From Escherichia phage FEC14, in the sequence record MG383452: a stretch of 64,000 bases of DNA; one strand, 5' to 3'. Of this stretch, positions 711-62,481 are shown in pieces (position 1 is the first letter of the stretch; every line of letters starts with the position of its first letter). The position numbers and the translations under genes are program-made. Below the pieces are notes generated by a model, which was not told the origin of the DNA, searched no databases, and worked only from the letters and a program-made list of their open reading frames with translations.

Positions 711-2141
711 TTAACCGAAATTCCAATTATTCACGGTCTCGGCTTTCTTGACATCATTTACGTCGCCTGTTTTGTTTAAGTCATGTTTGATATGAACATT
801 CTCAACATAACGGGCTTCCTCTTCTGTCAGGTCTCGCTTGACTTCATTCCAATCCAAGTCAAACAATATCTGTTTATCTTGATCCATACCGAACAAGAAC
901 GATTTGAGTTTCTGTTTATTGGCATAACGGTTTTTCAAGATAGACGCTCGGGCTTTCTTAACAGCCGCCAGTTCATCAGGGGCATAGAACGCCATGATGA
1001 AGTCTGCAACCTTCGGAATACCGATAGCATCTGCCAGGTCGCTAATATTACCATCAGTCGCCGATTGTTTTTCACGGATAAATTGCATACCTGTCCATAC
1101 AGGGCAATCAAATTCAAATCCAAGCGCACGGAATTCACGCGCCACCGACGTATAATACACGTTGGTGTTCTGCATTAAATGGGCAGGAAGGCGAGAAGAC
1201 GCTGATTCACCCAAGTAGTCTATAATAATGACGTCCGGCGTAATTCCCGTGGATGTCGCATAATCAAGGATATCGCGGCGATATAGTCCTGTATGCCCAG
1301 CGCCTGAAGGATATTCCTTGATAACAATATCACCCTTCATGGAACCGTCTTGACGAGTTCGCAACTTTTGTATCGTGGCGACATATTCATGTCGTGAGAG
1401 CTTCTCTAAGGACTCGAAGTCCCTGCGCATCATACGGGCATCAAGGCGGTGACGCCAGACGTTCTCAGCCACTTCTAGGGTGAATACGAATACGTTCAAC
1501 CCTTGCTCGGAGTAACCAGCAGCCAAATCAATCAGAGTTGTTGTCTTACCCGCATTAATTGCACCCGTCACGATGTTCAGCGTTTTCTTACCAACACCAC
1601 CACGAGTCGCTTTGTTGAATATCTCTACAGCGAAAGGAATCTTCGCTTCATTAGAGTTCATGTGGTCGTATTGTTGTTCAGCCATTTCCCAATAGATATG
1701 GCCAAGATAAGAATCAAAACTTATCGCCAACGCCTCTTGTAGGAGAGTTGGAATCGTGTTCATCTCATCTTTACGTTTCTCATCACCATAGATGTTGACG
1801 GCGTGTTTGATCGCATTATGAACAGCTTTCTGCCGCGCCCAACTTTCTGTTTCTTTTACAAGCCATTCCTGATGGAATGTGTTGTCATTGATATTCTCAA
1901 GAGCAGAAATAGCTTGTTCAAATACGTGTTCGTTGAGCGAAGTCTTTTCCAGCATAATAGACAACGCTTCAACCGAAGGACGAGCATTATATTCGCAAGT
2001 GTAATGGTCAATGAGACCGAATATAATTTTCTCGCCTTCGTTATCGAAATAATCGGCTTTCAAATACGGCTGGATCTTTCTTTGATATTCTTCGTTATAG
2101 ATTAATTGGGAAAGCACGACAGATTCGAGTAACATTGGCAA
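711..2141 (-). CDS. 41: replicative DNA helicase, T4 gp41-like (DnaB family)
   Basis: 476 aa; Walker A GAINAGKTT; motifs WLVKETE, ALAISFDSYLGH, IIIDYLGE match T4 gp41; uvsX-40-41 synteny. Confidence 0.9.
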   Translation of the reverse strand: MPMLLESVVLSQLIYNEEYQRKIQPYLKADYFDNEGEKIIFGLIDHYTCEYNARPSVEALSIMLEKTSLNEHVFEQAISALENINDNTFHQEWLVKETESWARQKAVHNAIKHAVNIYGDEKRKDEMNTIPTLLQEALAISFDSYLGHIYWEMAEQQYDHMNSNEAKIPFAVEIFNKATRGGVGKKTLNIVTGAINAGKTTTLIDLAAGYSEQGLNVFVFTLEVAENVWRHRLDARMMRRDFESLEKLSRHEYVATIQKLRTRQDGSMKGDIVIKEYPSGAGHTGLYRRDILDYATSTGITPDVIIIDYLGESASSRLPAHLMQNTNVYYTSVAREFRALGFEFDCPVWTGMQFIREKQSATDGNISDLADAIGIPKVADFIMAFYAPDELAAVKKARASILKNRYANKQKLKSFLFGMDQDKQILFDLDWNEVKRDLTEEEARYVENVHIKHDLNKTGDVNDVKKAETVNNWNFG

Positions 2142-37910: not shown

Positions 37911-38703
37911 TATTTTGTTGCTCCCGTTCTAATGCTCGTTTCTTTGCTTCTTCCCAATCTGGTTCCATAGAACATATTTCGTCTTCCAGATTGAATTGAG
38001 TAGAGCCGAAGTCATAGTCTGAATTATCTTCGGCGTCGGCGGTAATGGTATTTTCACTCTTTGTGAGACATTGAAGTATACCGCGAGGAATTTTCTTATT
38101 CTTTTCCTCTTCTTTGATGGCGATTTGCTTTTGGCGTTCCTTTTCGCGCTGTGCTTCTTTCTTAGTTTCAAAATTTCCGATACGCTCACGGAAGTCCATT
38201 GTTATACCAGTGCTGTCTACGAATGTCTGTTGCTGGAAGTCTGGGTCATCTGATAATGCAGCGAAACCACCTGCTTCTTCAAATGAACGCAACTTGATAT
38301 AATTGTGTTCTTCTTCACTGGTGAGTTTCTTGGCGAATGAACGATCGGCGCACATCGTTACCCAAGAGAAGAAATTGATTTTTCCTTTCTTGCCGATATG
38401 ACTGACGTCAAATGTATGGAGGTAACGAAGAATGTTAACAACGGCCTCACTGACCATGTCTTCGCGGTATGGATAATCACGATAGTTGTAGCGCATACTC
38501 ATGTTCTTAATAATCATCTGAACATTCATGGCCACATAATTGGGGATTCTTGGTAGGGGTGTTCCTTCGGCCAAAGCCTTTTTGCGAGCCGGAATCCAAT
38601 CTCTCAATATTCCAACAACACGGTCATTATCTTCGTCTGTGAAATATTTGGTGACGTTATCACCCCTGTCTACAAAATTCATACCCATCGTGATAATCCT
38701 CAA
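37897..38703 (-). CDS. 55: putative late-transcription sigma factor, gp55-like
   Basis: 268 aa; region ...NVQMIIKNMSMRYNYRDYPYREDMVSEAVVNILRYLHTFD... resembles T4 gp55 core; 55-47-46 synteny; long acidic C-terminal extension. Confidence 0.45.
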   Translation of the reverse strand: MRIITMGMNFVDRGDNVTKYFTDEDNDRVVGILRDWIPARKKALAEGTPLPRIPNYVAMNVQMIIKNMSMRYNYRDYPYREDMVSEAVVNILRYLHTFDVSHIGKKGKINFFSWVTMCADRSFAKKLTSEEEHNYIKLRSFEEAGGFAALSDDPDFQQQTFVDSTGITMDFRERIGNFETKKEAQREKERQKQIAIKEEEKNKKIPRGILQCLTKSENTITADAEDNSDYDFGSTQFNLEDEICSMEPDWEEAKKRALEREQQNNGDC

Positions 38704-39242
38704 ATACCAATGAATTCATTGAAAGAACCAACGACTTTCTTGACCGAGAAACGGTTATTTTCAAGAACCATTGAACTATCTTCTTTGGCTCTAACGCTCC
38801 ACTGATCCGCAATTTCGTTGCCCATCGTTCCTGCATGACCTTTCACCCATTTTAATTCAAGTTCACAAATTGAACAAACTTTGTCATAATAATCGAACAA
38901 CTCGAGCAGAAGTTCTGTGTTCTTAGGCGGCATTCCTTCATATTCCCATTTACGACGCCACTCCAAAACGCTATTGATAACATATTGGCTGTCGGATATG
39001 ATGCGGGCTGGGGGAATGCAGCGTTCACCGCAATTAGAGAATTTCCATAGGATCTTCATTGCGTTTATAACCCCGAGTAACTCAGCTATATTGTTCGTTG
39101 ACGGCGGGGGTAAATACCCATAAAACACTTTCCATTGCTCTCCAGTGATTGGACTGATGGCAAATGCCCAACCAGCGGCTCGTGTCTTCTGAGGGGATGA
39201 TGCCCCGTCAGTGTATATTTCAATCATGTATAAGTATCCCAA
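38700..39242 (-). CDS. rnhA: ribonuclease HI (cellular type)
   Basis: 180 aa; IYTDGAS, NNIAEL, DSQYV, KGHAG...GNEIAD catalytic motifs in order. Confidence 0.7.
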   Translation of the reverse strand: MGYLYMIEIYTDGASSPQKTRAAGWAFAISPITGEQWKVFYGYLPPPSTNNIAELLGVINAMKILWKFSNCGERCIPPARIISDSQYVINSVLEWRRKWEYEGMPPKNTELLLELFDYYDKVCSICELELKWVKGHAGTMGNEIADQWSVRAKEDSSMVLENNRFSVKKVVGSFNEFIGI

Positions 39243-39269
39243 ACTGGTTTTATCGATGAGGAACGAATC

Positions 39270-40037
39270 ATGTCAGAACGCGCATATCGTTTCAGTCTGA
39301 CCGCCCCAGAAATTGAGCGTTTGCTCTTGTCTATAAATGATTCCATACAAAAGCTGGACATCATTTATGACTACACGGCGGGTGGGACTGAAGGTCAAGT
39401 CGCAGCTGCGTCAGCTGTCAAAAACATGTGGCTAAAACTTAATGAGATGGTCACAGGTGAAGGTCTTAAAGACGCAATCAATGCAGCTAACGACAGCAAC
39501 GTATTCACCGATTATTATAAGTCTATTTTAGATCGCGAAACTTGGAAATTTATTGGTTCTCCGGCAGATTTATTAGCAAGGGACGATATAGACACTTCCA
39601 ATTTTGAAGGCGGTGAAGTAATCCTCCTACAAAAGAACGCTTCGGGCAACCCAGAATTCCAATACTGGAAAAGAACTCCTGTGGCAGGAGGTGATCCAAT
39701 ATTTGGTTGGGAATCTGTTTATGAAGGAAACTCCAACGACTCTTCTATTGATATTCCGGTTGTTGGGACCAGCATACTGAAGACAATCCCAAAAGCATTG
39801 TTTCATATGGTCGAATTCAGAGTACACGCTCGAGAGTCTACCCTCGGTCATTGGCAGGACACTGATGGCAAAATCGGTTATCGTGGTGAAGATCTGATTT
39901 ATAGCCTGTATAATCATGTTCAAACCAAACCGATCGCAAATATATCTTTCAGCCAAGATGTGGACAATATGATTATCACGATAACGACACTTGAACCAAA
40001 TATCAAGTGCCATTTATCGTTTATTGCGGGTTATTAA
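39270..40037 (+). CDS. hypothetical protein (255 aa), lone plus-strand gene
   Basis: ORF track; GAGGAA RBS; convergent 4-nt overlap with helicase gene. Confidence 0.45.
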   Translation: MSERAYRFSLTAPEIERLLLSINDSIQKLDIIYDYTAGGTEGQVAAASAVKNMWLKLNEMVTGEGLKDAINAANDSNVFTDYYKSILDRETWKFIGSPADLLARDDIDTSNFEGGEVILLQKNASGNPEFQYWKRTPVAGGDPIFGWESVYEGNSNDSSIDIPVVGTSILKTIPKALFHMVEFRVHARESTLGHWQDTDGKIGYRGEDLIYSLYNHVQTKPIANISFSQDVDNMIITITTLEPNIKCHLSFIAGY

Positions 40038-41755
40038 ACCTCAAACACTGCATCGGTGAACCAGGTTGGGAAGAATTCTGGGTTGCGCATCATAAGAGAT
40101 TCAAAGGATGAATCAATGATGTATGTCGCAGCCCAGTCATCAACACCCCTGACCGAACGCCCACACATTTGAACAATGCGCAGTACTGCATTGCGGAAAT
40201 ATGCCGACGGATCCACTGAATTGATATGTGCTATCAGTGGATCGCCCAGATAATCATAAGGGACTTTGATCAGTATTTGGAAACGGCTGTAATCCCCTTT
40301 GAAATCATAACCTTCTTCCATAGCCGGACTGGCAATGACGCATGGGGACTTTGTTCTAAAAGCATTTTCCATAATATCCATCAACGCCTTTCGGGTGCGC
40401 GGAACATGGATAAAATTCTGATATTTACTGAATTTTTGTATTGCCAAGGCGCGATCATAACTCACTGTATGGATAATGCCGGACTGACCTGGGTGGAACG
40501 CGATTATTTCATCAATATATTCCGTCAACCTTTTCATTTCATAGTCGCCCATATTGTTAGTCATCTTCACTATGGGCATATAGTTGACTTTTCTGTTTTC
40601 AATTGGGATAGGGTTGCCGATCTGAATGGAATGATAATCCCCCTGTCGAATACCCAATGAACGAGCATAAGAATCTATGCCGCAGATCGTTGCTGACATA
40701 TGAACGTGATAATCGGCTTTTCGGAATAACCCGAATTCGCTTACATCAGAAGGCATAACAGGTTTAAACCGGATAAAATCTTCCCCCTTTTCTTGCACAA
40801 TAAATGTACTTGCTTGGGTTTGTGACATAATACCGCAATAATCACTCAAGTTATGCAAGACATCTATAATGTCTGCGAGTTTCATCACTTGGCTTTCACT
40901 CAAGCGATCATCTTCGACCAATTCTTCAAGAACTTCCAACAAATTTTCTACTTTGAGATGGAGGTCTTCAAACATTGAATGTAGTTCACCAGACAAAGAA
41001 TATAACTTGCCCAGGACATAGTCCTTGGTGCGTTCTACGATATCACCAATGGTAGAGACGATCTCCTTGCCCTCAGGGATAGAACGCAGCCCCTCCACGG
41101 CCTTTGTATTGTATTCCATGATCGTGTGCTCTAGGAGCGTAGAGGGCATTTTATGGCACTCGTCAAGGATCAGCATATCGGAACGGTTTTCGGGCTTCAT
41201 GCAGATGGTTGTACACATTTCGATCATCATGGCAGCATTAGTACAACGCAATGATGAAATATCCGTCCACAAATTACGCGCCTGTACATAAGGACAGCGG
41301 CGTTTGCTACAATGCCCGTCACGGCATGCTATACGGCATTGGACAGCATTGTAATACACATCTGGATGTACGTGGCAACGATAGTTCTTCTTGCCTTTTA
41401 GGATGTCTATCGCCACCGCCTTTTCAGCAGCATACTGATCTTGCAGACCTTTGGTCGGGGTGCTGATAGAAGTGCGAAATTGCCCATAAGGATCAGCCTG
41501 TAAAACTAGATGGCGAATCACTTTATGAATGGTAGTGCCAATCAAAGATTTACCGACACCTGTCGGAGCTTCAATGATGACATGTTTAACCTTTTTGTTG
41601 ATAAGCGCATCTATGGCTTCGACGATGCATTCCATCTGGCCTGGGTTCGCTTTGTCATATGGGAATTCATCTTTGGTAAGGCGTTGTATTTCTTCCACAG
41701 GAACCTTACGGCCTATGGCGTCAATCGCCTTTCGGTGTTGATTAAATGCTGTCAC
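40034..41755 (-). CDS. DinG/XPD-family (Rad3-like) Fe-S DNA helicase
   Basis: 573 aa; Walker A EAPTGVGKS, DECH box, four-Cys cluster (C..C..C..C) between motifs I and II. Confidence 0.7.
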   Translation of the reverse strand: MTAFNQHRKAIDAIGRKVPVEEIQRLTKDEFPYDKANPGQMECIVEAIDALINKKVKHVIIEAPTGVGKSLIGTTIHKVIRHLVLQADPYGQFRTSISTPTKGLQDQYAAEKAVAIDILKGKKNYRCHVHPDVYYNAVQCRIACRDGHCSKRRCPYVQARNLWTDISSLRCTNAAMMIEMCTTICMKPENRSDMLILDECHKMPSTLLEHTIMEYNTKAVEGLRSIPEGKEIVSTIGDIVERTKDYVLGKLYSLSGELHSMFEDLHLKVENLLEVLEELVEDDRLSESQVMKLADIIDVLHNLSDYCGIMSQTQASTFIVQEKGEDFIRFKPVMPSDVSEFGLFRKADYHVHMSATICGIDSYARSLGIRQGDYHSIQIGNPIPIENRKVNYMPIVKMTNNMGDYEMKRLTEYIDEIIAFHPGQSGIIHTVSYDRALAIQKFSKYQNFIHVPRTRKALMDIMENAFRTKSPCVIASPAMEEGYDFKGDYSRFQILIKVPYDYLGDPLIAHINSVDPSAYFRNAVLRIVQMCGRSVRGVDDWAATYIIDSSFESLMMRNPEFFPTWFTDAVFEV

Positions 41756-41803
41756 GTTGTTCCTCCTTTGGATTCTGTTATAGTTTACCCGAATCCCAAC
41801 AAC

Positions 41804-41830
41804 GAAAAAGCCGAGGCATTAACCTCGGCT
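41804..41830 (-). terminator. rho-independent terminator downstream of HU-like gene
   Basis: AGCCGAGG-CATTAA-CCTCGGCT hairpin, T-run on minus strand. Confidence 0.5.
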
Positions 41831-41890
41831 TCTCCTTTTAGCCTTGCGCCGCTGCACTGCAGACATGCGCTGGGCCGACGCCTGGTGTGA

Positions 41891-42169
41891 TTACTGGCCG
41901 TTGGCAGCAGCTTTCAGACCTTCACCGACTTTGAATTTAACTACATTTTTCGCTTCGATCTGGATCTGTTGTCCGTTCAGCGGGTTGCGGCCAGTGCGCG
42001 CTTCCTGATGTTTAACTTCGAACGCGCCGAAGCCTACGAATTGGACAGATTGGCCAGCCGCGACTGCAGTTTTCACGCCATTGATAAAAGATGCAACGAT
42101 TTTCTCAGCTTCGCCTTTGGTCATACCCTGGGTTTGAGCGATGTGAGCGATAAAATCAGTACGGTTCAT
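41891..42169 (-). CDS. HU/IHF-family DNA-binding protein
   Basis: 92 aa from MNRTDFIAHIA; GFGAFEVKHQEARTGRNPLNGQQIQIEAKNVVKFKVG is a canonical HU arm. Confidence 0.7.
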   Translation of the reverse strand: MNRTDFIAHIAQTQGMTKGEAEKIVASFINGVKTAVAAGQSVQFVGFGAFEVKHQEARTGRNPLNGQQIQIEAKNVVKFKVGEGLKAAANGQ

Positions 42170-42252
42170 TCGGATTACTCCAGTTAGTTGTTTACGATGT
42201 TTCACTACAAGAGGACTACAGCTTACCTAACAAATACTATTGAATAAAGCGT

Positions 42253-43047
42253 TTATTTGCCGACGTTTAGCATTTTACTTGAGCCTGAACCATCAACAAT
42301 CAGAGTACATTTCCCGCTGTTGGCGCAAGATTGCAACACCATGTTATATTCGTGTTGTAAATATTCAGGTGTCAGAGATGTCGTCAGTTTCTGATTCGCC
42401 CTGGCTTCTTGGTCTCGAATTTCAACGTTCTTTCTTGCTGTATCCAAACGTTTGTCGGCCATGACATTATCACGGATAGATTGCTCAATCGAAGGATCTG
42501 TCAGCGCCTTTTTGACCAACACGCGTGTGATTGTGAACATGCCAGGTGCAGCTGTTTCTAATTGCTGCTGGGTGCGTTCCTTGATCATCTTTTCTAACTC
42601 AGCCCGTTGGGTGTGAATTGTCATAGAATCCAAAGAGGAAACGGCGTCCATCGTTGAGGATGCTGCGGCGGTTTTAACCAGGTTGAATCCCACCGCTATC
42701 GTGCCGTCACCGAGTTCAGCGCTCTGACCTGCAAATTTGGTATGGAACCAAGGAACCTTCGCGACGTTCGGTGTGTAATAAACGTCCACATCCAGATCTT
42801 CCAAGGTCAGGTTGTCTTTGGCCTTTGGCGTCATTTTCGTCAGACTCACAACGGCTTCTTTGGTCGTGTAAACATCCACGCTTGAAACAAAGCTGGTGTA
42901 GATCCCCGCTGTTACAGGGTTCATGTCTACTTCACCCCATTGGGTGCGAACGCCGACATTACCTTCATCGATAACGCCACCACAACCAGAAAGTAGACTT
43001 GCAGCCAGAACCATAATTGCACCAAACACCAATTTCTTGAACATCAA
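42253..43047 (-). CDS. lipoprotein with SPFH (band-7/HflC)-like domain
   Basis: signal peptide plus lipobox LLSGC; VIDEGNVGVRTQWGEV...AGIY resembles SPFH N-terminus. Confidence 0.45.
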   Translation of the reverse strand: MMFKKLVFGAIMVLAASLLSGCGGVIDEGNVGVRTQWGEVDMNPVTAGIYTSFVSSVDVYTTKEAVVSLTKMTPKAKDNLTLEDLDVDVYYTPNVAKVPWFHTKFAGQSAELGDGTIAVGFNLVKTAAASSTMDAVSSLDSMTIHTQRAELEKMIKERTQQQLETAAPGMFTITRVLVKKALTDPSIEQSIRDNVMADKRLDTARKNVEIRDQEARANQKLTTSLTPEYLQHEYNMVLQSCANSGKCTLIVDGSGSSKMLNVGK

Positions 43048-48640: not shown

Positions 48641-50857
48641 TTAGATTTTGACTTCTTTTTCAGCCAGTTCGGCAGTGACAGTGTATTTCACCCCATCAAC
48701 TTCCACATCCATAGTGGATTCTTCCAAATCCAGGTCGGTAAACCAACCATGGCCTGCAACAATCCCATAAACTACCTTGGACAGCGTTTTGTTCAGAGAT
48801 CGAACTTCGTTGATAGCTGCTTTTGCTGCATCACCAATCCAACTTTCGATCAGCTTTTTCTGAGTCTCTTCCGGTACGCTGGTGATCATCGGCGATTTAA
48901 CAAACGCATTGTATTCGGCCAGGGCATTAGCGATCAGCTGATCAGCGACATTCAGTTTTTTACCGTCCGTCTGTTTTTTGATAACAGACGCGATGCTCGG
49001 CAGTGAAGATGCGCCTTTGATTTTCACATTCAATTCACGACTCATATAGACATCGGTTGATTCTACAGAAGAAGTCTTCGGTGAAAATCCATAGTCGCGA
49101 ATGCCGTTTGCTGACAGGAAATCAGCCGCTTCTTTGCCATATTTTGAAGCCAGACCAGTAGCGTTGCCTTTGCCAACCAGTTCATCACGGTAGAATTTCA
49201 GAACTTTTTGCTTTGCCTTCAATGCTTCACGGCGCACATTGTCTGCAAAGAATTCAGCAGCACTGATATTCTTTGTCATGGCGCGGTTAACCATTGGGAC
49301 ACTTTCCAGATTTACAATGAAGACTTCCGGCCCACCAAACACATGAACACCCATGGCAGTCAAATCCTGTGCCACCTTAGCCCGAATAATCGGAGAATCT
49401 GCAGTGATAGGCATTGTTTTCAGGTTGATGATACCATCCTTGACAATGGTGTAATTGCGATAACGCCAGGTTCCCAGCTCTTCAGGAAGTTCATATTTCT
49501 TCTGTACAAACTCAGGCACAACAACCGTTCCGTGTTGAACTGTCTGCACACTGATGTTAGGACGTTCTGAATTGTAGACCAAATTGCTGATCGGGACAAT
49601 CCCTTTATCATCTGCTGGATTGAATTCGGGGGTCCAATCTTCGTGCTCGGCCAGTTTGAGCGCCAGGGCTTTACGCTCTTCTTTAGAAGTCGCATTCGCA
49701 ATCTCTTCGGCCAACTTGTCTTCGGTGTCATCAACTTTCTGTACAGTACCGCGCCCAATGCTCTTGTAAGAGAATAGCGGATGCTTAGTGACAATAGAGA
49801 CATCTGCTTCAGCCAGATACGTCAGAACATCAACAATGGTGGTGGCGTCTTCAGCCGGAACCATATTATAATCGATGCCATCAACTCCTCGCAGAGATTC
49901 GTCTACGATAGCCTGGGTCAGATCGACTTTGATGTTGGAATAGTCCTGCTTGGTGAAACAGTTGCTGTATTGTTTGATGAAGCGGACGTCACCCGTTTTC
50001 TTCAGCGCAGCCCAAACCAAATCTGCGTCCATGGTATACACGCCGTAAAATGCCAGCACGTATGCCGCTTGGATGTCTGCCAGATTATCCAGCTGGTCGA
50101 TCATGTTGGGGTTTACAACCCACAGCTGAGAAACGCTTTCAGGGATGCTGACGTGGCCAATAGGGTGCTCTTCATCAGGATGCACAGCTAAAACAGTCGC
50201 CACGCCATTTTCAACATAAATGGCATGGGTGTAAACCAGGGGAACATCGACCACCACTTTCGGTGAAGAAGTTTTTAGCACGTTTTCCAATTCGGTCTGA
50301 TATTCATTCTGGCCTTCGGCGAATACGTGGGTCGCACCAGAACGTTCTGCCATTAGCGCCAGCAGTTCGCGATTACAATACCAACCGTATTCGATGAAGG
50401 TAATGTTATCAAACGCTTTGGGCAGTACTTCAGCGGCATCCAGGATTTCATTAGAACGCCAGCAGTTGTCATATCCGTCAGTCATGAATGCCAGGTTATT
50501 AACATAACCAGGTTTATTCAGGCTAATGGCAGTTTCCGCAGCCAATTTCAGCGGCTCAACAAAACCAGTACAACCAGAAGGCTTCAGGAAACGGTCAATT
50601 AGATTATTGATCTCAGTGAGATCAGTTGCACTGTTAATCTGACGTCCGGCAAATACCGTTCCGAAATCACCGCGAGATGAAAAGTAAAGGATGCTCACAG
50701 TATCTTCCGGTTTCACCAGGGAAGGCAGGTTCTCCTTCAGATGCTTACGGACTTCTGGAAGTGAACGATACATGGAACCGGAGATATCCACAACGATTAC
50801 ATGGTTAGACGGCGCGACGGTCGCAACCGCATTCTTAAATGTTAATGATTCAATCAT
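48641..50857 (-). CDS. von Willebrand factor A (VWA) domain protein (738 aa)
   Basis: N-terminal MIDAS-like VIVVDISGSMYRS; ATG 50857 with GAAGG RBS (tracked ORF starts at upstream GTG). Confidence 0.55.
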   Translation of the reverse strand: MIESLTFKNAVATVAPSNHVIVVDISGSMYRSLPEVRKHLKENLPSLVKPEDTVSILYFSSRGDFGTVFAGRQINSATDLTEINNLIDRFLKPSGCTGFVEPLKLAAETAISLNKPGYVNNLAFMTDGYDNCWRSNEILDAAEVLPKAFDNITFIEYGWYCNRELLALMAERSGATHVFAEGQNEYQTELENVLKTSSPKVVVDVPLVYTHAIYVENGVATVLAVHPDEEHPIGHVSIPESVSQLWVVNPNMIDQLDNLADIQAAYVLAFYGVYTMDADLVWAALKKTGDVRFIKQYSNCFTKQDYSNIKVDLTQAIVDESLRGVDGIDYNMVPAEDATTIVDVLTYLAEADVSIVTKHPLFSYKSIGRGTVQKVDDTEDKLAEEIANATSKEERKALALKLAEHEDWTPEFNPADDKGIVPISNLVYNSERPNISVQTVQHGTVVVPEFVQKKYELPEELGTWRYRNYTIVKDGIINLKTMPITADSPIIRAKVAQDLTAMGVHVFGGPEVFIVNLESVPMVNRAMTKNISAAEFFADNVRREALKAKQKVLKFYRDELVGKGNATGLASKYGKEAADFLSANGIRDYGFSPKTSSVESTDVYMSRELNVKIKGASSLPSIASVIKKQTDGKKLNVADQLIANALAEYNAFVKSPMITSVPEETQKKLIESWIGDAAKAAINEVRSLNKTLSKVVYGIVAGHGWFTDLDLEESTMDVEVDGVKYTVTAELAEKEVKI

Positions 50858-51020
50858 CGTTATTACCTTCTTTAGTGGTATGGACGGCTTCACCTTCCGG
50901 CTTCGCCAGCATGTGTTCTATGAATTCGCGATTAGTTTCAATCTGTTGGATTAAAACTTCGCTGGGTTTAAACTGTGAGTCAAGAGAGTCAACTCCTGAA
51001 CGCAAAAATGGTTTGGTCAT
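50850..51020 (-). CDS. small ORF (56 aa), translationally coupled
   Basis: unlisted frame MTKPFLRSGVDSLDSQFKPSEVLIQQ...; start 1 nt after upstream stop, stop overlaps VWA start (ATGA). Confidence 0.3.
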   Translation of the reverse strand: MTKPFLRSGVDSLDSQFKPSEVLIQQIETNREFIEHMLAKPEGEAVHTTKEGNNDD

Positions 51021-60978: not shown

Positions 60979-62481
60979 TTAGAGCGCCACTTTTTTCATT
61001 TTAACAGGGTGGCGCTCCATAAGATAAAATTTATATCTCTCATGAGAATGCCTGAGAGCATGGTTGTAGGAACCGTTGTAACGCAGGTTGTCTACCAGGT
61101 CCCAGATTCGCGCAACATCCTTAGAGGAATGCTGACGCATCAAACGCCCCAATGTCTGTATAACACGGATATAAGATTTGCTGGGATGGGCCAATATCAG
61201 ATGATGGAGTTTTTTGATAGATACGCCCTGTTGCATAGTACCATATGATGCTAACAGTGTTATATCTTCCCCTTCTTCCATAGCAGCCTGAATCTGTTTA
61301 CGAACTTCTGTCTTGACTTCCCCGTTGATGACGAATACGTTTTTCTTGACTGCCGATAGCATTTCATAAACCAACATCATGTGTGCATCGATACGTTCGA
61401 ACATGACTGCGACGTTCCCTTTCAAAGATAGAGCCATTCGGGCTATCAATTCATTGCGGCGTTCGTTAGCAATGAGGAATTCTATTTCCTTTTGATACTC
61501 AGCACCGTGCATTTCAATACAGTCTGCCATAGGATGTATGACTTCAATCATATTAACATTGATGTCTGCCGCATATCCTAGATCGATTAAATCGCGCGCT
61601 GTAATAATTTTATGATATGCGCCAAAGTGAGCAACGACTTGTAACCCTGCGACCTTTGTATTCGCCAGGGTTCCGGTTACTCCCAAACGTTGATCAGCGT
61701 TAATACAGTTGTTCAAGATGTAAGACAATTTATCTGATTTTGATGTATGTACTTCGTCAACGACGATATCTCCAAATTGATGGAACCACTCTTTGGGTTG
61801 GTTCTGGATACCTTGCCAAGTTGAAATAACTATGGGTTTGAAAATCTCTTTCGTTGCCCCTTCGTATATTGTCTGGACGTTCATCAATGGCTTCCATTCT
61901 GTCCCGTGGCTATATTCTTCGAAGTTGTCATACAACTGAGTCACCAAATGAATGGATGGTACAACAATTAACGTCCTCAGATTACTTTCGAGGGCATCTC
62001 TGCGTTGCCTGTAGTAACGCGCCATGATGTACAAAATAAAGGATTTGCCAGCACTCGTGGCAGCTTCGAGGACACATCTGCTTTGGCGTATTGCTGTGGC
62101 AACAGAATCAAATTGATAATCGCGGACAATCGCTTTTTGATATTGTTTGTTTTCGTCTCGGTACACCGCATTCAATGTATCGATGAACGCATGAATTTCT
62201 TCATCCGGAATGTCTTGAATATATTTTAAGGCCGGATCTAATTTGATGGTGTAACCGTTCATCTTACAGAATTTGAACACCTCAAATAACAGGCCGATGT
62301 CGATAAGCCCAGAACTCTTTGTGAACAACCGCACTACGCCGTCCCATTTACTGAACGGATTCGGTTGGAAATTAGGATCTTCAAATTTGAAGTAATCGTT
62401 GAGTTCTTCACGGATATAATCCTCGGCAAGGATCCGCATTCTAACTTCGTTCACTTTGACTATTTGGATCTCAGACATCAC
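60979..62481 (-). CDS. uvsW: UvsW SF2 DNA/RNA-DNA helicase
   Basis: 500 aa; PTSAGKS-like motif I (EAATSAGKS), DEVH box, WQGIQNQPKEWFHQFG matches T4 UvsW WQTVVKQPKEWFSQFG. Confidence 0.8.
   Translation of the reverse strand: MMSEIQIVKVNEVRMRILAEDYIREELNDYFKFEDPNFQPNPFSKWDGVVRLFTKSSGLIDIGLLFEVFKFCKMNGYTIKLDPALKYIQDIPDEEIHAFIDTLNAVYRDENKQYQKAIVRDYQFDSVATAIRQSRCVLEAATSAGKSFILYIMARYYRQRRDALESNLRTLIVVPSIHLVTQLYDNFEEYSHGTEWKPLMNVQTIYEGATKEIFKPIVISTWQGIQNQPKEWFHQFGDIVVDEVHTSKSDKLSYILNNCINADQRLGVTGTLANTKVAGLQVVAHFGAYHKIITARDLIDLGYAADINVNMIEVIHPMADCIEMHGAEYQKEIEFLIANERRNELIARMALSLKGNVAVMFERIDAHMMLVYEMLSAVKKNVFVINGEVKTEVRKQIQAAMEEGEDITLLASYGTMQQGVSIKKLHHLILAHPSKSYIRVIQTLGRLMRQHSSKDVARIWDLVDNLRYNGSYNHALRHSHERYKFYLMERHPVKMKKVAL

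Follow-up and report, generated by a model that had tools for sequence, protein, structure and literature searches.

The window analysed here, a stretch of 64,000 nucleotides from Escherichia phage FEC14 (MG383452), belongs to a Kuttervirus genome (Ackermannviridae) with 99% identity to Salmonella phages SFP10 and BSP101 and 98.8% identity to E. coli phage CBA120. It carries a complete helicase gene together with the T4-type helicase genes gp41 and UvsW, both of which the initial annotation had also recognized (Table 1). The helicase frame opens with a GTG codon at 41755 in the window's list of open reading frames, and the closely spaced Shine-Dalgarno sequence ahead of it favours the longer version of the protein, Q-motif included. 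In the homologue alignment the invariant F31 and Q40 precede the first internal Met, and one 533-aa homologue (P0012; query coverage 93%) may be without the Q-motif. A probable terminator 3' of the HU gene suggests that there is no simple read-through from HU into the helicase gene, and promoter scans upstream of the helicase gene gave no assignable sigma-70-like or T4-late (TATAAATA) promoter. At the other end, the stop codons of the helicase gene and the orf123 counterpart overlap (TTAA, 40034-40037). A PADLOC scan of this convergent neighbour gave no match, and an Rfam scan of the whole window gave zero matches.

Table 1. Features of the helicase locus and the T4-type helicase genes, in window positions (aa, helicase residues)
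Feature	Position	Strand	Remarks
gp41 gene	711..2141		DnaB_C domain
RNase HI-type gene (PF00075)	38700..39242	-	two genes downstream of helicase
CBA120 orf123 counterpart, PHROG 3833	39270..40037	+	conserved, unknown function; convergent with helicase
XPD/DinG-superfamily SF2 helicase CDS, complete, 573 aa	40034..41755	-	CBA120 orf124/gp097; PHROG 2488
Motor domain 2, Helicase_C_2 match, aa 465-566	40058..40363	-	includes motif VI
Motif VI QMCGRSVR, aa 529-536	40148..40171	-	
Motif III SAT, aa 354-356	40688..40696	-	
Arch-like insertion in motor domain 1, aa ~215-335	40751..41113	-	AlphaFold secondary structure and DinG Arch alignment
Motif II/Walker B DECH, aa 198-201	41153..41164	-	D, E, H invariant; C200 variable (A or S elsewhere)
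Compact four-Cys module CHVHPDVYYNAVQCRIACRDGHCSKRRC, aa 127-154	41294..41377	-	presumed [4Fe-4S] site
Motif I/Walker A EAPTGVGKS, aa 62-70	41546..41572	-	T65, G66, G68, K69 invariant
Q-motif region FPYDKANPGQM	41633..41665	-	F31, P32, G39, Q40 invariant or nearly so
Shine-Dalgarno GGAGG	41762..41766	-	6 nt 5' of helicase GTG
G+C-rich hairpin then T-run, probable terminator	41808..41831	.	between HU gene and helicase gene
UvsW gene	60979..62481		UvsW_N, ResIII and Helicase_C domains

The SF2 motor core of the protein is intact, with motifs Q, I, Ia, II (DEAH-type), III, V and VI all present, including the Walker A and DECH boxes read in the initial annotation. Across 77-133 homologues, F31/Q40, GxGKS (66-70), TKxLQxQ (101-107), DExH (198-201), SAT (354-356) and QxxGRxxR (529-536) are invariant, as are all of the catalytic residues K69, D198, E199, H201, S354, T356, Q529, R533 and R536. 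Helicase_C_2 (PF13307) scored 46.1 bits against a gathering cut-off of 25.3, and Pfam ResIII and DEAD matched too. Family profile searches recovered DinG of F. magna (9e-20) and E. coli (7.5e-18), followed by XPD/Rad3/FANCJ/CHL1 at about 1e-12, and hhalign against E. coli DinG gave a probability of 99.3% (E 1.1e-20, 503 columns). The AlphaFold model is of high confidence (pLDDT 91.8, pTM 0.90), and its top 40 Foldseek matches are DinG, XPD or CasDinG without exception. The protein also has an Arch between motifs II and III and the overall four-domain fold of the superfamily; the Arch-like insertion combines beta strands with two long helices, 256-280 and 287-312.

The similarity to the family, judged by the PHROG 2488, Pfam and hhalign scores, is far beyond chance. 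Thus the Rad3/XPD/DinG-type assignment of the initial annotation is borne out, and the predicted product of the gene is a real, intact XPD/DinG-family helicase. By curated cut-offs it is no orthologue of DinG, YoaA, XPD or Csf4: scores stayed below the equivalog cut-offs for DinG (NF008729, 57.7 versus 598 bits) and YoaA (NF053712, 53.7 versus 680), the subfamily cut-off for rad3 (TIGR00604, 27.4 versus 246.95 bits) and the cut-off for cas_csf4 (TIGR03117, 12.7 versus 400 bits). Because these scores are so far below the cut-offs, traits of those enzymes can be transferred to the phage protein at the superfamily level only.

The gene is already known as an XPD/DinG-type helicase in public records. 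In CBA120 (2011) and many related phages it is labelled ATP-dependent, DinG-family or Rad3-related; the CBA120 orf124 record reads "DNA helicase", and relatives carry "dinG" or "DinG family helicase". With fold and motifs as expected for the superfamily, it has little value as a discovery. In the genome paper of CBA120, the review of Ackermannviridae and the comparative paper on Vi01-like phages, the gene is just a helicase or goes unmentioned, and viral members fall outside a review of bacterial DinG-like proteins (PMC11981726). Our literature searches, in which the surname 'Ding' swamps full-text results, found no experimental work on phage-encoded XPD/DinG helicases or on members of the viral subfamily. 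The PHROG 2488 profile (579 positions) matched over its full length, positions 2-579 against aa 19-573, with E 4.7e-265. Some 4,500 clusters, formed at 50% identity, reach E <= 1e-30, and this very large family appears to be mainly or wholly viral.

Throughout Ackermannviridae the helicase gene is part of the core, fixed and present as a single copy. Of 496 phage records, 461 have it over 80% or more of its length, and the shorter matches among the listed records come from distant relatives or from records truncated at an end. Truncation to a pseudogene in relatives, raised in the initial annotation as grounds for doubt, was thus not what we found. The wider reading of a decaying or inactive gene, be it a pseudogene or an ATPase-dead scaffold, could draw on nothing beyond the GTG start and the match in phage EspM4VN, which is single and in two pieces. 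Set against these are an intact frame with a strong ribosome-binding site, the invariance of every catalytic residue and full length in nearly all of the records; judged from sequence, conservation effectively refutes it.

Between Walker A and DECH the helicase has eight cysteines (127, 140, 144, 149, 154, 171, 181 and 185), plus C200 inside DECH, and five of them cluster within aa 127-154. Every one of 119 full-length homologues, at 31-99% identity, has C127, C140, C149 and C154, which upholds the four-cysteine cluster between motifs I and II claimed initially; C144 is lineage-specific. The four recur in phiW-14 gp70, Vibrio phage GR28A, haloarchaeal virus HRTV-8, Rhizobium phage TM40 and Bacillus phage G gp73, and a whole-database search gave at least four Cys in the aligned segment of 129/133 sequences. 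The module is part of an insertion that interrupts motor domain 1 after motif Ia and before motif II. Given the family membership and the conservation of the cysteines, we consider that it most likely holds a [4Fe-4S] cluster.

Binding of zinc, or a purely structural role of the four cysteines in an XPD/DinG-fold helicase that carries no iron-sulfur cofactor, is an unlikely alternative that still deserves weight. The module spans 28 residues here (23-37 in the wider family), as against 86 in E. coli DinG (C120-C205), and although C127, C149 and C154 align with the DinG cluster ligands C120, C199 and C205, C140 and DinG C194 fall at different positions. CCCC motifs in the superfamily may bind Zn, as the review of DinG-like proteins warns (PMC11981726), and CasDinG shows that the fold is functional without a cluster (PMC10450177). 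Against zinc, however, stand the alignment of Cys 1, 3 and 4 with DinG ligands, the last Cys in a family-typical C-P-Y/F...A-R context, the absence of zinc-ribbon-typical CxxC knuckles from the helicase sequence, and an invariance across a very large family that mirrors bona fide FeS members. The viral module is the most compact seen in the superfamily and much shorter than any solved FeS domain. Thus, it could be a convenient minimal model for the role of the cluster in XPD/DinG helicases.

Comparison with known systems places these features in context. E. coli DinG (PDB 6FWR/6FWS) is the best Foldseek match (E 3.7e-26) and shares the four-part architecture of two motors, Arch and a Cys module between Ia and II, with only 15-16% identity; it is longer (716 versus 573 aa), places the second Cys ligand differently, and is an SOS-regulated host gene whereas the helicase here is phage-encoded. 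Finegoldia magna DinG (PDB 9KQH; 16-17% identity) has 748 residues, about 170 of them extra and N-terminal of the aligned region. Relative to XPD/Rad3 (PDB 9P55, 5H8W, 3CRV, 2VL7), Cys spacing in the phage protein is much tighter, and TFIIH-type partners are not annotated in CBA120. CasDinG/Csf4 (PDB 8E2W, 7XF0, 8S35) has a vestigial FeS domain without Cys (PMC10450177), whereas the phage helicase keeps all four. Of the same subfamily are viral Rad3-related helicases in PHROG 2488, such as HF2/HRTV-8 gp102, phiW-14 gp70 (Delftia phage), that of a Rhizobium phage and Bacillus phage G gp73, which share length class and the four Cys and are 27-38% identical along about 95% of their length. Their hosts and neighbourhoods differ.

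In the window the helicase gene neighbours HU, orf123, RNase HI, gp55 and gp47/gp46. The block helicase-orf123-RNase HI-gp55-gp47-gp46 is conserved down to 33-39% identity, and the helicase-RNase HI linkage is kept across Ackermannviridae. We rejected RNase HI coupling, an R-loop module, as a family-wide rule, since the linkage is confined to Ackermannviridae-like loci, to whose genomes the RNase HI/gp55/gp47/gp46 arrangement is specific. In unrelated viral lineages the helicase adjoins gp46/gp47 or UvsW, or has a gp41-type helicase gene 72-132 bp upstream, and in Rhizobium phage TM40 it sits between primase, ligase and DNA polymerase. Such locations in replication and recombination modules favour work in fork clearing, R-loop removal or recombination, with the proviso that clustering with replication genes in large phages may in part reflect general module organization. 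Ackermannviridae and phiW-14 also share thymidine hypermodification; the hypermodification paper names no helicase (0 occurrences), and the members in haloarchaeal, Rhizobium and Bacillus phages give no support for a link between the two.

T4 has three helicases, gp41, UvsW and Dda, the last a monomer-type SF1B 5'-3' accessory helicase. Our data show that CBA120 has just gp41, UvsW and orf124 annotated as helicases, and that the distant Ackermannviridae phage GR28A likewise has three (gp41, UvsW and the XPD/DinG type). A tblastn search of both whole genomes with T4 Dda found no Dda homologue (best E 0.46 in CBA120 and 0.36 in GR28A), and against the helicase gene itself Dda gave a P-loop-level match alone (E 4.2). 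Dda is present where the XPD/DinG-type gene is absent, and absent from both XPD/DinG-carrying genomes checked. The initial description of an 'extra' helicase is therefore misleading, and with three helicases in each genome and no Dda homologue, the protein is better read as a substitute for Dda. The two are unrelated in sequence and fold (SF1 versus SF2), and Dda is without a metal site; it is the proposed functional counterpart in a T4-like replication/recombination system. Its absence marks an open niche and does not by itself name the protein that fills it; a Dda-like role of the XPD/DinG-type protein is probable.

We propose, with a probability of roughly 60%, that the gene encodes an active XPD/DinG-type helicase with a [4Fe-4S] cluster in a Dda-like replication/recombination niche. 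The enzyme would be an ATP-driven SF2 helicase of two RecA-like motors, an Arch insertion and a compact four-Cys module. To our knowledge, every characterised member of the XPD/Rad3/DinG superfamily moves 5' to 3' on single-stranded DNA. By analogy, the phage helicase would travel 5' to 3' on single-stranded DNA that passes between its Arch and its Cys module, and RNA:DNA hybrids may be further substrates. As a core part of the T4-like replication/recombination gene set in this phage family, it would probably remove R-loops and bound proteins in front of the fork, and prepare or remodel recombination intermediates for gp46/gp47 (Mre11/Rad50-like) and UvsX, the machinery behind recombination-dependent replication. 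Our observations are the family membership, the intact catalytic motifs, the conserved Cys, the lack of Dda and the gene neighbourhood, from which metal, polarity, substrates and the Dda-like role are what we infer. Of the roles first suggested for the gene, R-loop or recombination processing fits the neighbourhood (RNase HI, gp55, gp47/gp46, HU), and nothing that we found speaks for that of countering host defence.

A dedicated DNA-repair helicase, performing XPD-like damage verification or lesion/crosslink bypass on phage DNA, seems to us quite improbable. XPD, FANCJ and DinG are repair helicases, one of the Foldseek matches is XPD stalled at a crosslink, and the recombination-repair genes gp46/gp47 are neighbours of the gene. 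However, UvrA/B/C-like or TFIIH-like partners are absent from the CBA120 annotation, and universal retention in short-cycle lytic phages better suits a replication-linked role. Because repair and recombination-dependent replication are inseparable in T4-type phages, this reading overlaps with the Dda-like replication/recombination role that we prefer.

We regard as very unlikely an anti-defence helicase that strips nucleic-acid-guided effectors (CRISPR R-loops, RNA:DNA hybrids) or counters DNA-sensing defence. DinG and CasDinG unwind RNA:DNA hybrids (PMC10450177), and on one jumbo-phage contig a homologue lies <8 kb from Tad3, Acb3 and SAM-lyase genes. The strongest named match in the PADLOC defence library is 'typeIV_DinG, CAS-IV-A associated' (E 6e-50), but this is a model of a helicase and not of an anti-defence protein, we read the match as similarity at the superfamily level, and csf genes are absent alongside. 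Membership in a CRISPR type IV system was likewise rejected: the Csf4 score is low, the four Cys are present and no csf genes are annotated nearby in CBA120. The gene belongs to the core, with conserved synteny in a replication/recombination block rather than in a variable accessory island, and distant relatives adjoin gp41, gp46/47, UvsW, primase or polymerase. The narrower form of this idea, in which the enzyme goes beyond replacing Dda and is dedicated to stripping RNA:DNA hybrids and proteins, so that host guide-RNA R-loops (CRISPR type I/IV Cascade or similar) on phage DNA are dismantled, is highly doubtful, and the evidence points more to replication and recombination. If true, it would place a helicase-based anti-defence mechanism among the core genes of thousands of large viruses. 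For the Dda-like role, the coincidence of the gene with Dda loss in Ackermannviridae offers a testable case of non-homologous accessory-helicase replacement in a T4-type replisome.

We assign the product of the minus-strand frame, found exactly where the initial annotation had placed it, to the XPD/Rad3/DinG superfamily as securely as computation can make it. Pfam recovered Helicase_C_2 (46.1 bits, cut-off 25.3) together with ResIII and DEAD, and PHROGs returned phrog_2488, 'DNA helicase' (E 4.7e-265). When a profile of A1, a 77-sequence alignment of the helicase and its homologues, was searched against all PDB sequences, F. magna DinG (8.6e-20) and E. coli DinG (7.5e-18) ranked first, followed by Rad3, XPD, FANCJ, CHL1 and archaeal XPDs at about 1e-12. 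Additionally, hhalign aligned A1 with E. coli DinG over 503 columns (probability 99.3%, E 1.1e-20). A confident AlphaFold2 model built on A1 (mean pLDDT 91.8, pTM 0.90) carries a helical/beta insertion at residues 215-335, the place of the Arch domain in DinG and XPD, and the top 40 Foldseek matches in PDB were all DinG, XPD/Rad3 or CasDinG (best 3.7e-26). The DinG/XPD-type call is thus borne out, as are the Walker A and DECH motifs read from the sequence.

By NCBI curated cut-offs, the helicase is not an orthologue of DinG (57.7 bits against 598), YoaA (53.7 against 680), Rad3/XPD (27.4 against 247) or Csf4 (12.7 against 400). The PADLOC model PDLC01439, 'typeIV_DinG, CAS-IV-A associated', matched nearly the full length of the helicase (E 6e-50), far better than the curated DinG, YoaA and Csf4 models. 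However, CasDinG lacks the cysteines, of which the phage helicase has four conserved, and no CRISPR-related gene lies near the helicase; we therefore read this match as superfamily-level similarity. The helicase belongs to a separate subfamily, the named members of which come from bacterial and archaeal viruses; two metagenomic members checked by context both lie on phage-like contigs. A review of bacterial DinG-like proteins includes no viral class, and describes a 'short DinG' class from which the FeS domain is wholly absent (PMC11981726).

The helicase has cysteines at positions 43, 127, 140, 144, 149, 154, 171, 181, 185, 200, 307, 358, 472 and 531. Where a four-cysteine cluster had been reported, residues 127-154 in fact hold five, four of which are conserved. 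A search of a 5.8-billion-protein collection yielded 544 relatives, and C127, C140, C149 and C154 were each present in 119/119 full-length homologues (31-99% identity), among which C144, C171, C181 and C185 vary. The same four residues are invariant in A1, along with all helicase motif residues, and are kept in hand-picked remote homologues (phiW-14 gp70, Vibrio phage GR28A, haloarchaeal virus HRTV-8 gp102, Rhizobium phage TM40 and Bacillus phage G gp73). The exception is Salmonella phage Arash gp197, in which the cysteine insert is rearranged and much longer. The Arash locus (L013, 1877..8618) has three genes labelled ATP-dependent DNA helicases within 7 kb, gp197 being the XPD/DinG-type one.

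Searched exhaustively with the family profile, 1.84 billion cluster representatives gave 16,219 matches at E <= 1e-3 and 4,486 at E <= 1e-30. Across 133 sequences (132 of the best 150 representatives plus the query), the first and last cysteines occupy 100% of aligned columns, the third 95% and the second 83%; the segment holds at least four cysteines in 129/133, and the span from first to last is 23-37 residues (mode 28). Thus, neither the cysteine loss nor the truncation in relatives that the initial annotation had flagged as grounds for doubt was found, at least 80% of the protein being present in 461 of 496 phage records; the shorter matches among those listed come either from very remote homologues or from records cut off at one end. 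In the hhalign alignment, C127, C149 and C154 pair with C120, C199 and C205 of E. coli DinG. DinG C194 falls opposite variable position 144, and the second ligand of the viral family, C140, would therefore lie one helical turn earlier.

Many Salmonella kutterviruses (FrontPhageNews, BSP101, S8, SFP10) match region 39000-43000 at 99.4-99.6% identity, and E. coli phage CBA120 matches it at 98.8%; the first 25 kb of the window gave the same pattern. This places the window within a Kuttervirus genome (Ackermannviridae). The CBA120 counterpart, orf124/gp097, is labelled 'DNA helicase' and is flanked on one side by RNase H, the late sigma factor and two subunits of the recombination nuclease, gp47 and gp46, and on the other by an HU-like DNA-binding protein and a lipoprotein. 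GGAGG stands 6 nt 5' of the helicase start codon. A 533-aa homologue (P0012) covers 93% of the protein, and F31, P32 and Q40 near the N-terminus may be missing from it; as these are invariant, we take the long form as the right one.

Features of the helicase and its surroundings in the window
Feature	Position	Strand	Remarks
gp41 gene	711..2141		DnaB_C
RNase H gene	38700..39242	-	RNase HI type, PF00075
orf123 counterpart	39270..40037	+	255 aa, conserved, PHROG 3833; function unassigned
Helicase ORF	40034..41755	-	573 aa, GTG start; ORF finding
EAPTGVGKS (Walker A)	helicase aa 62-70
DECH box	helicase aa 198-201
G+C-rich hairpin + T-run	41808-41831		between helicase and HU genes
HU-family DNA-binding protein gene	41891..42205	-	immediately upstream of helicase gene
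Annotated 'lipoprotein' gene	42253..43047	-	SPFH/Band 7 domain, PF01145, E 1e-12
von Willebrand factor A protein	48641..50893	-	750 aa, vWA domain N-terminal, no other Pfam match
UvsW gene	60979..62481		UvsW_N/ResIII/Helicase_C

The block of helicase, convergent orf123, RNase HI, gp55, gp47 and gp46 persists even in Ackermannviridae-like genomes whose helicases are only 33-39% identical, and this synteny supports a replication or recombination function. Grouped at >=50% identity, 73 IMG/VR loci form 21 clusters. About ten of these, some from lineages outside Ackermannviridae, have gp46/gp47 homologues no more than 10 kb from the helicase, and at L076 they directly adjoin it. UvsW lies within 1 kb at L075 and L077. 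At three further IMG/VR loci from environmental viral lineages (L051, L052, L058), a gp41/DnaB-type helicase gene lies 72-132 bp upstream on the same strand, which suggests that the two are co-transcribed. In Rhizobium phage TM40, the gene is flanked by ligase, primase and exonuclease and, on its opposite side, by DNA polymerase. The 'RNase H' near the helicase in the window is of the cellular RNase HI type, which degrades the RNA strand of RNA:DNA hybrids, whereas T4 RNase H is FEN-type. The presence of RNase HI agrees with an R-loop connection for this phage family, outside which the linkage was not seen among the loci compared.

The helicase had been described as additional to the T4-type set, with gp41 and UvsW, correctly, also placed in the window. 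Its class does differ from that of Dda, an SF1B enzyme and T4's third helicase beside gp41 and UvsW, but the number does not: the whole CBA120 annotation also has three (gp41, orf124 and the UvsW-like orf165). By tblastn, no T4 Dda homologue was found in CBA120 or the window (the best match, E 0.46, was to the P-loop of PhoH), nor in the complete Vibrio phage GR28A genome (best E 0.36). GR28A is a distant Ackermannviridae member with gp41, UvsW and its own helicase copy (34% identical). Only 30 Escherichia-named phage records matched the helicase, and those listed were kutterviruses; T4-type coliphages therefore appear to lack it. Thus, T4 and Ackermannviridae each have a DnaB-type replicative helicase, UvsW and one more, SF1B Dda or an SF2 XPD/DinG type. 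As Dda and all characterised XPD/DinG members are known to be 5'-3' enzymes, non-homologous replacement of Dda is the simplest reading. The gp41 homologue of GR28A (locus L091, 27460..29880) appears as two tblastn segments about 1 kb apart, in an annotated gene of 2.4 kb rather than 1.4 kb, pointing to an insertion, intein or similar, in the replicative helicase.

By homology, the helicase would translocate 5'-3' on single-stranded DNA, driven by ATP, with the strand threaded between the cysteine module and the Arch domain. It may remove R-loops and proteins from the path of forks and, in recombination-dependent replication, act alongside gp46/gp47, UvsX and UvsY in the processing of ends and joint molecules; we put the probability of this biological role at about 0.6. 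The very compact CCCC module could bind zinc instead of [4Fe-4S], an alternative raised for this superfamily (PMC11981726), but we consider this unlikely because three ligands align with those of DinG, the last cysteine sits in a conserved C-P-Y...A-R context and CxxC knuckles are absent. A purely repair role, which overlaps the replication and recombination role favoured here, is quite improbable. An anti-defence role seems very improbable: the helicase is a syntenic core gene rather than an accessory-island gene, and specific support is lacking, the single suggestive locus, a 262-kb jumbo-phage contig (L014) that carries Tad3, Acb3 and SAM lyase genes no more than 8 kb from the helicase homologue, being anecdotal.

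The helicase identification is correct and already known. Near-identical genes are labelled 'putative ATP-dependent helicase' (CBA120), 'dinG: ATP-dependent DNA helicase' (LPEK22) and 'ATP-dependent DNA helicase DinG' (Klebsiella phage KFM-TASP06), and others 'DinG family ATP-dependent helicase' (GR28A) or 'Rad3-related DNA helicase' (haloarchaeal viruses); we found no paper characterising the protein. To this, the compactness of the cysteine module, the large viral family and the Dda substitution add only a little.

The orf123 counterpart, which has no Pfam or PADLOC match, is antisense in an otherwise minus-strand block and convergent with the helicase, their stop codons overlapping (TTAA, 40034-40037). 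A 29% identical homologue holds the same position in GR28A, and one phage record (pertopsoe) labels it a putative structural protein. The RNase HI start is uncertain (TTG, 180 aa by ORF finder; 142 aa in the CBA120 annotation). The strong hairpin with T-runs after the HU gene could be a terminator in either direction. The SPFH/Band 7 gene adjoins HU in Kuttervirus loci and also at L030, where the helicase is 65% identical; tblastn found none at this position in the other Ackermannviridae-like loci. On the jumbo-phage contig L014 (GCA_902725575.1, 6557..17152), the helicase homologue and the end of a DUF2828/DUF7788 gene overlap, and besides Tad3, Acb3 and the SAM lyase, Thg1 and two IS605 OrfB/TnpB-like genes lie within 8 kb.
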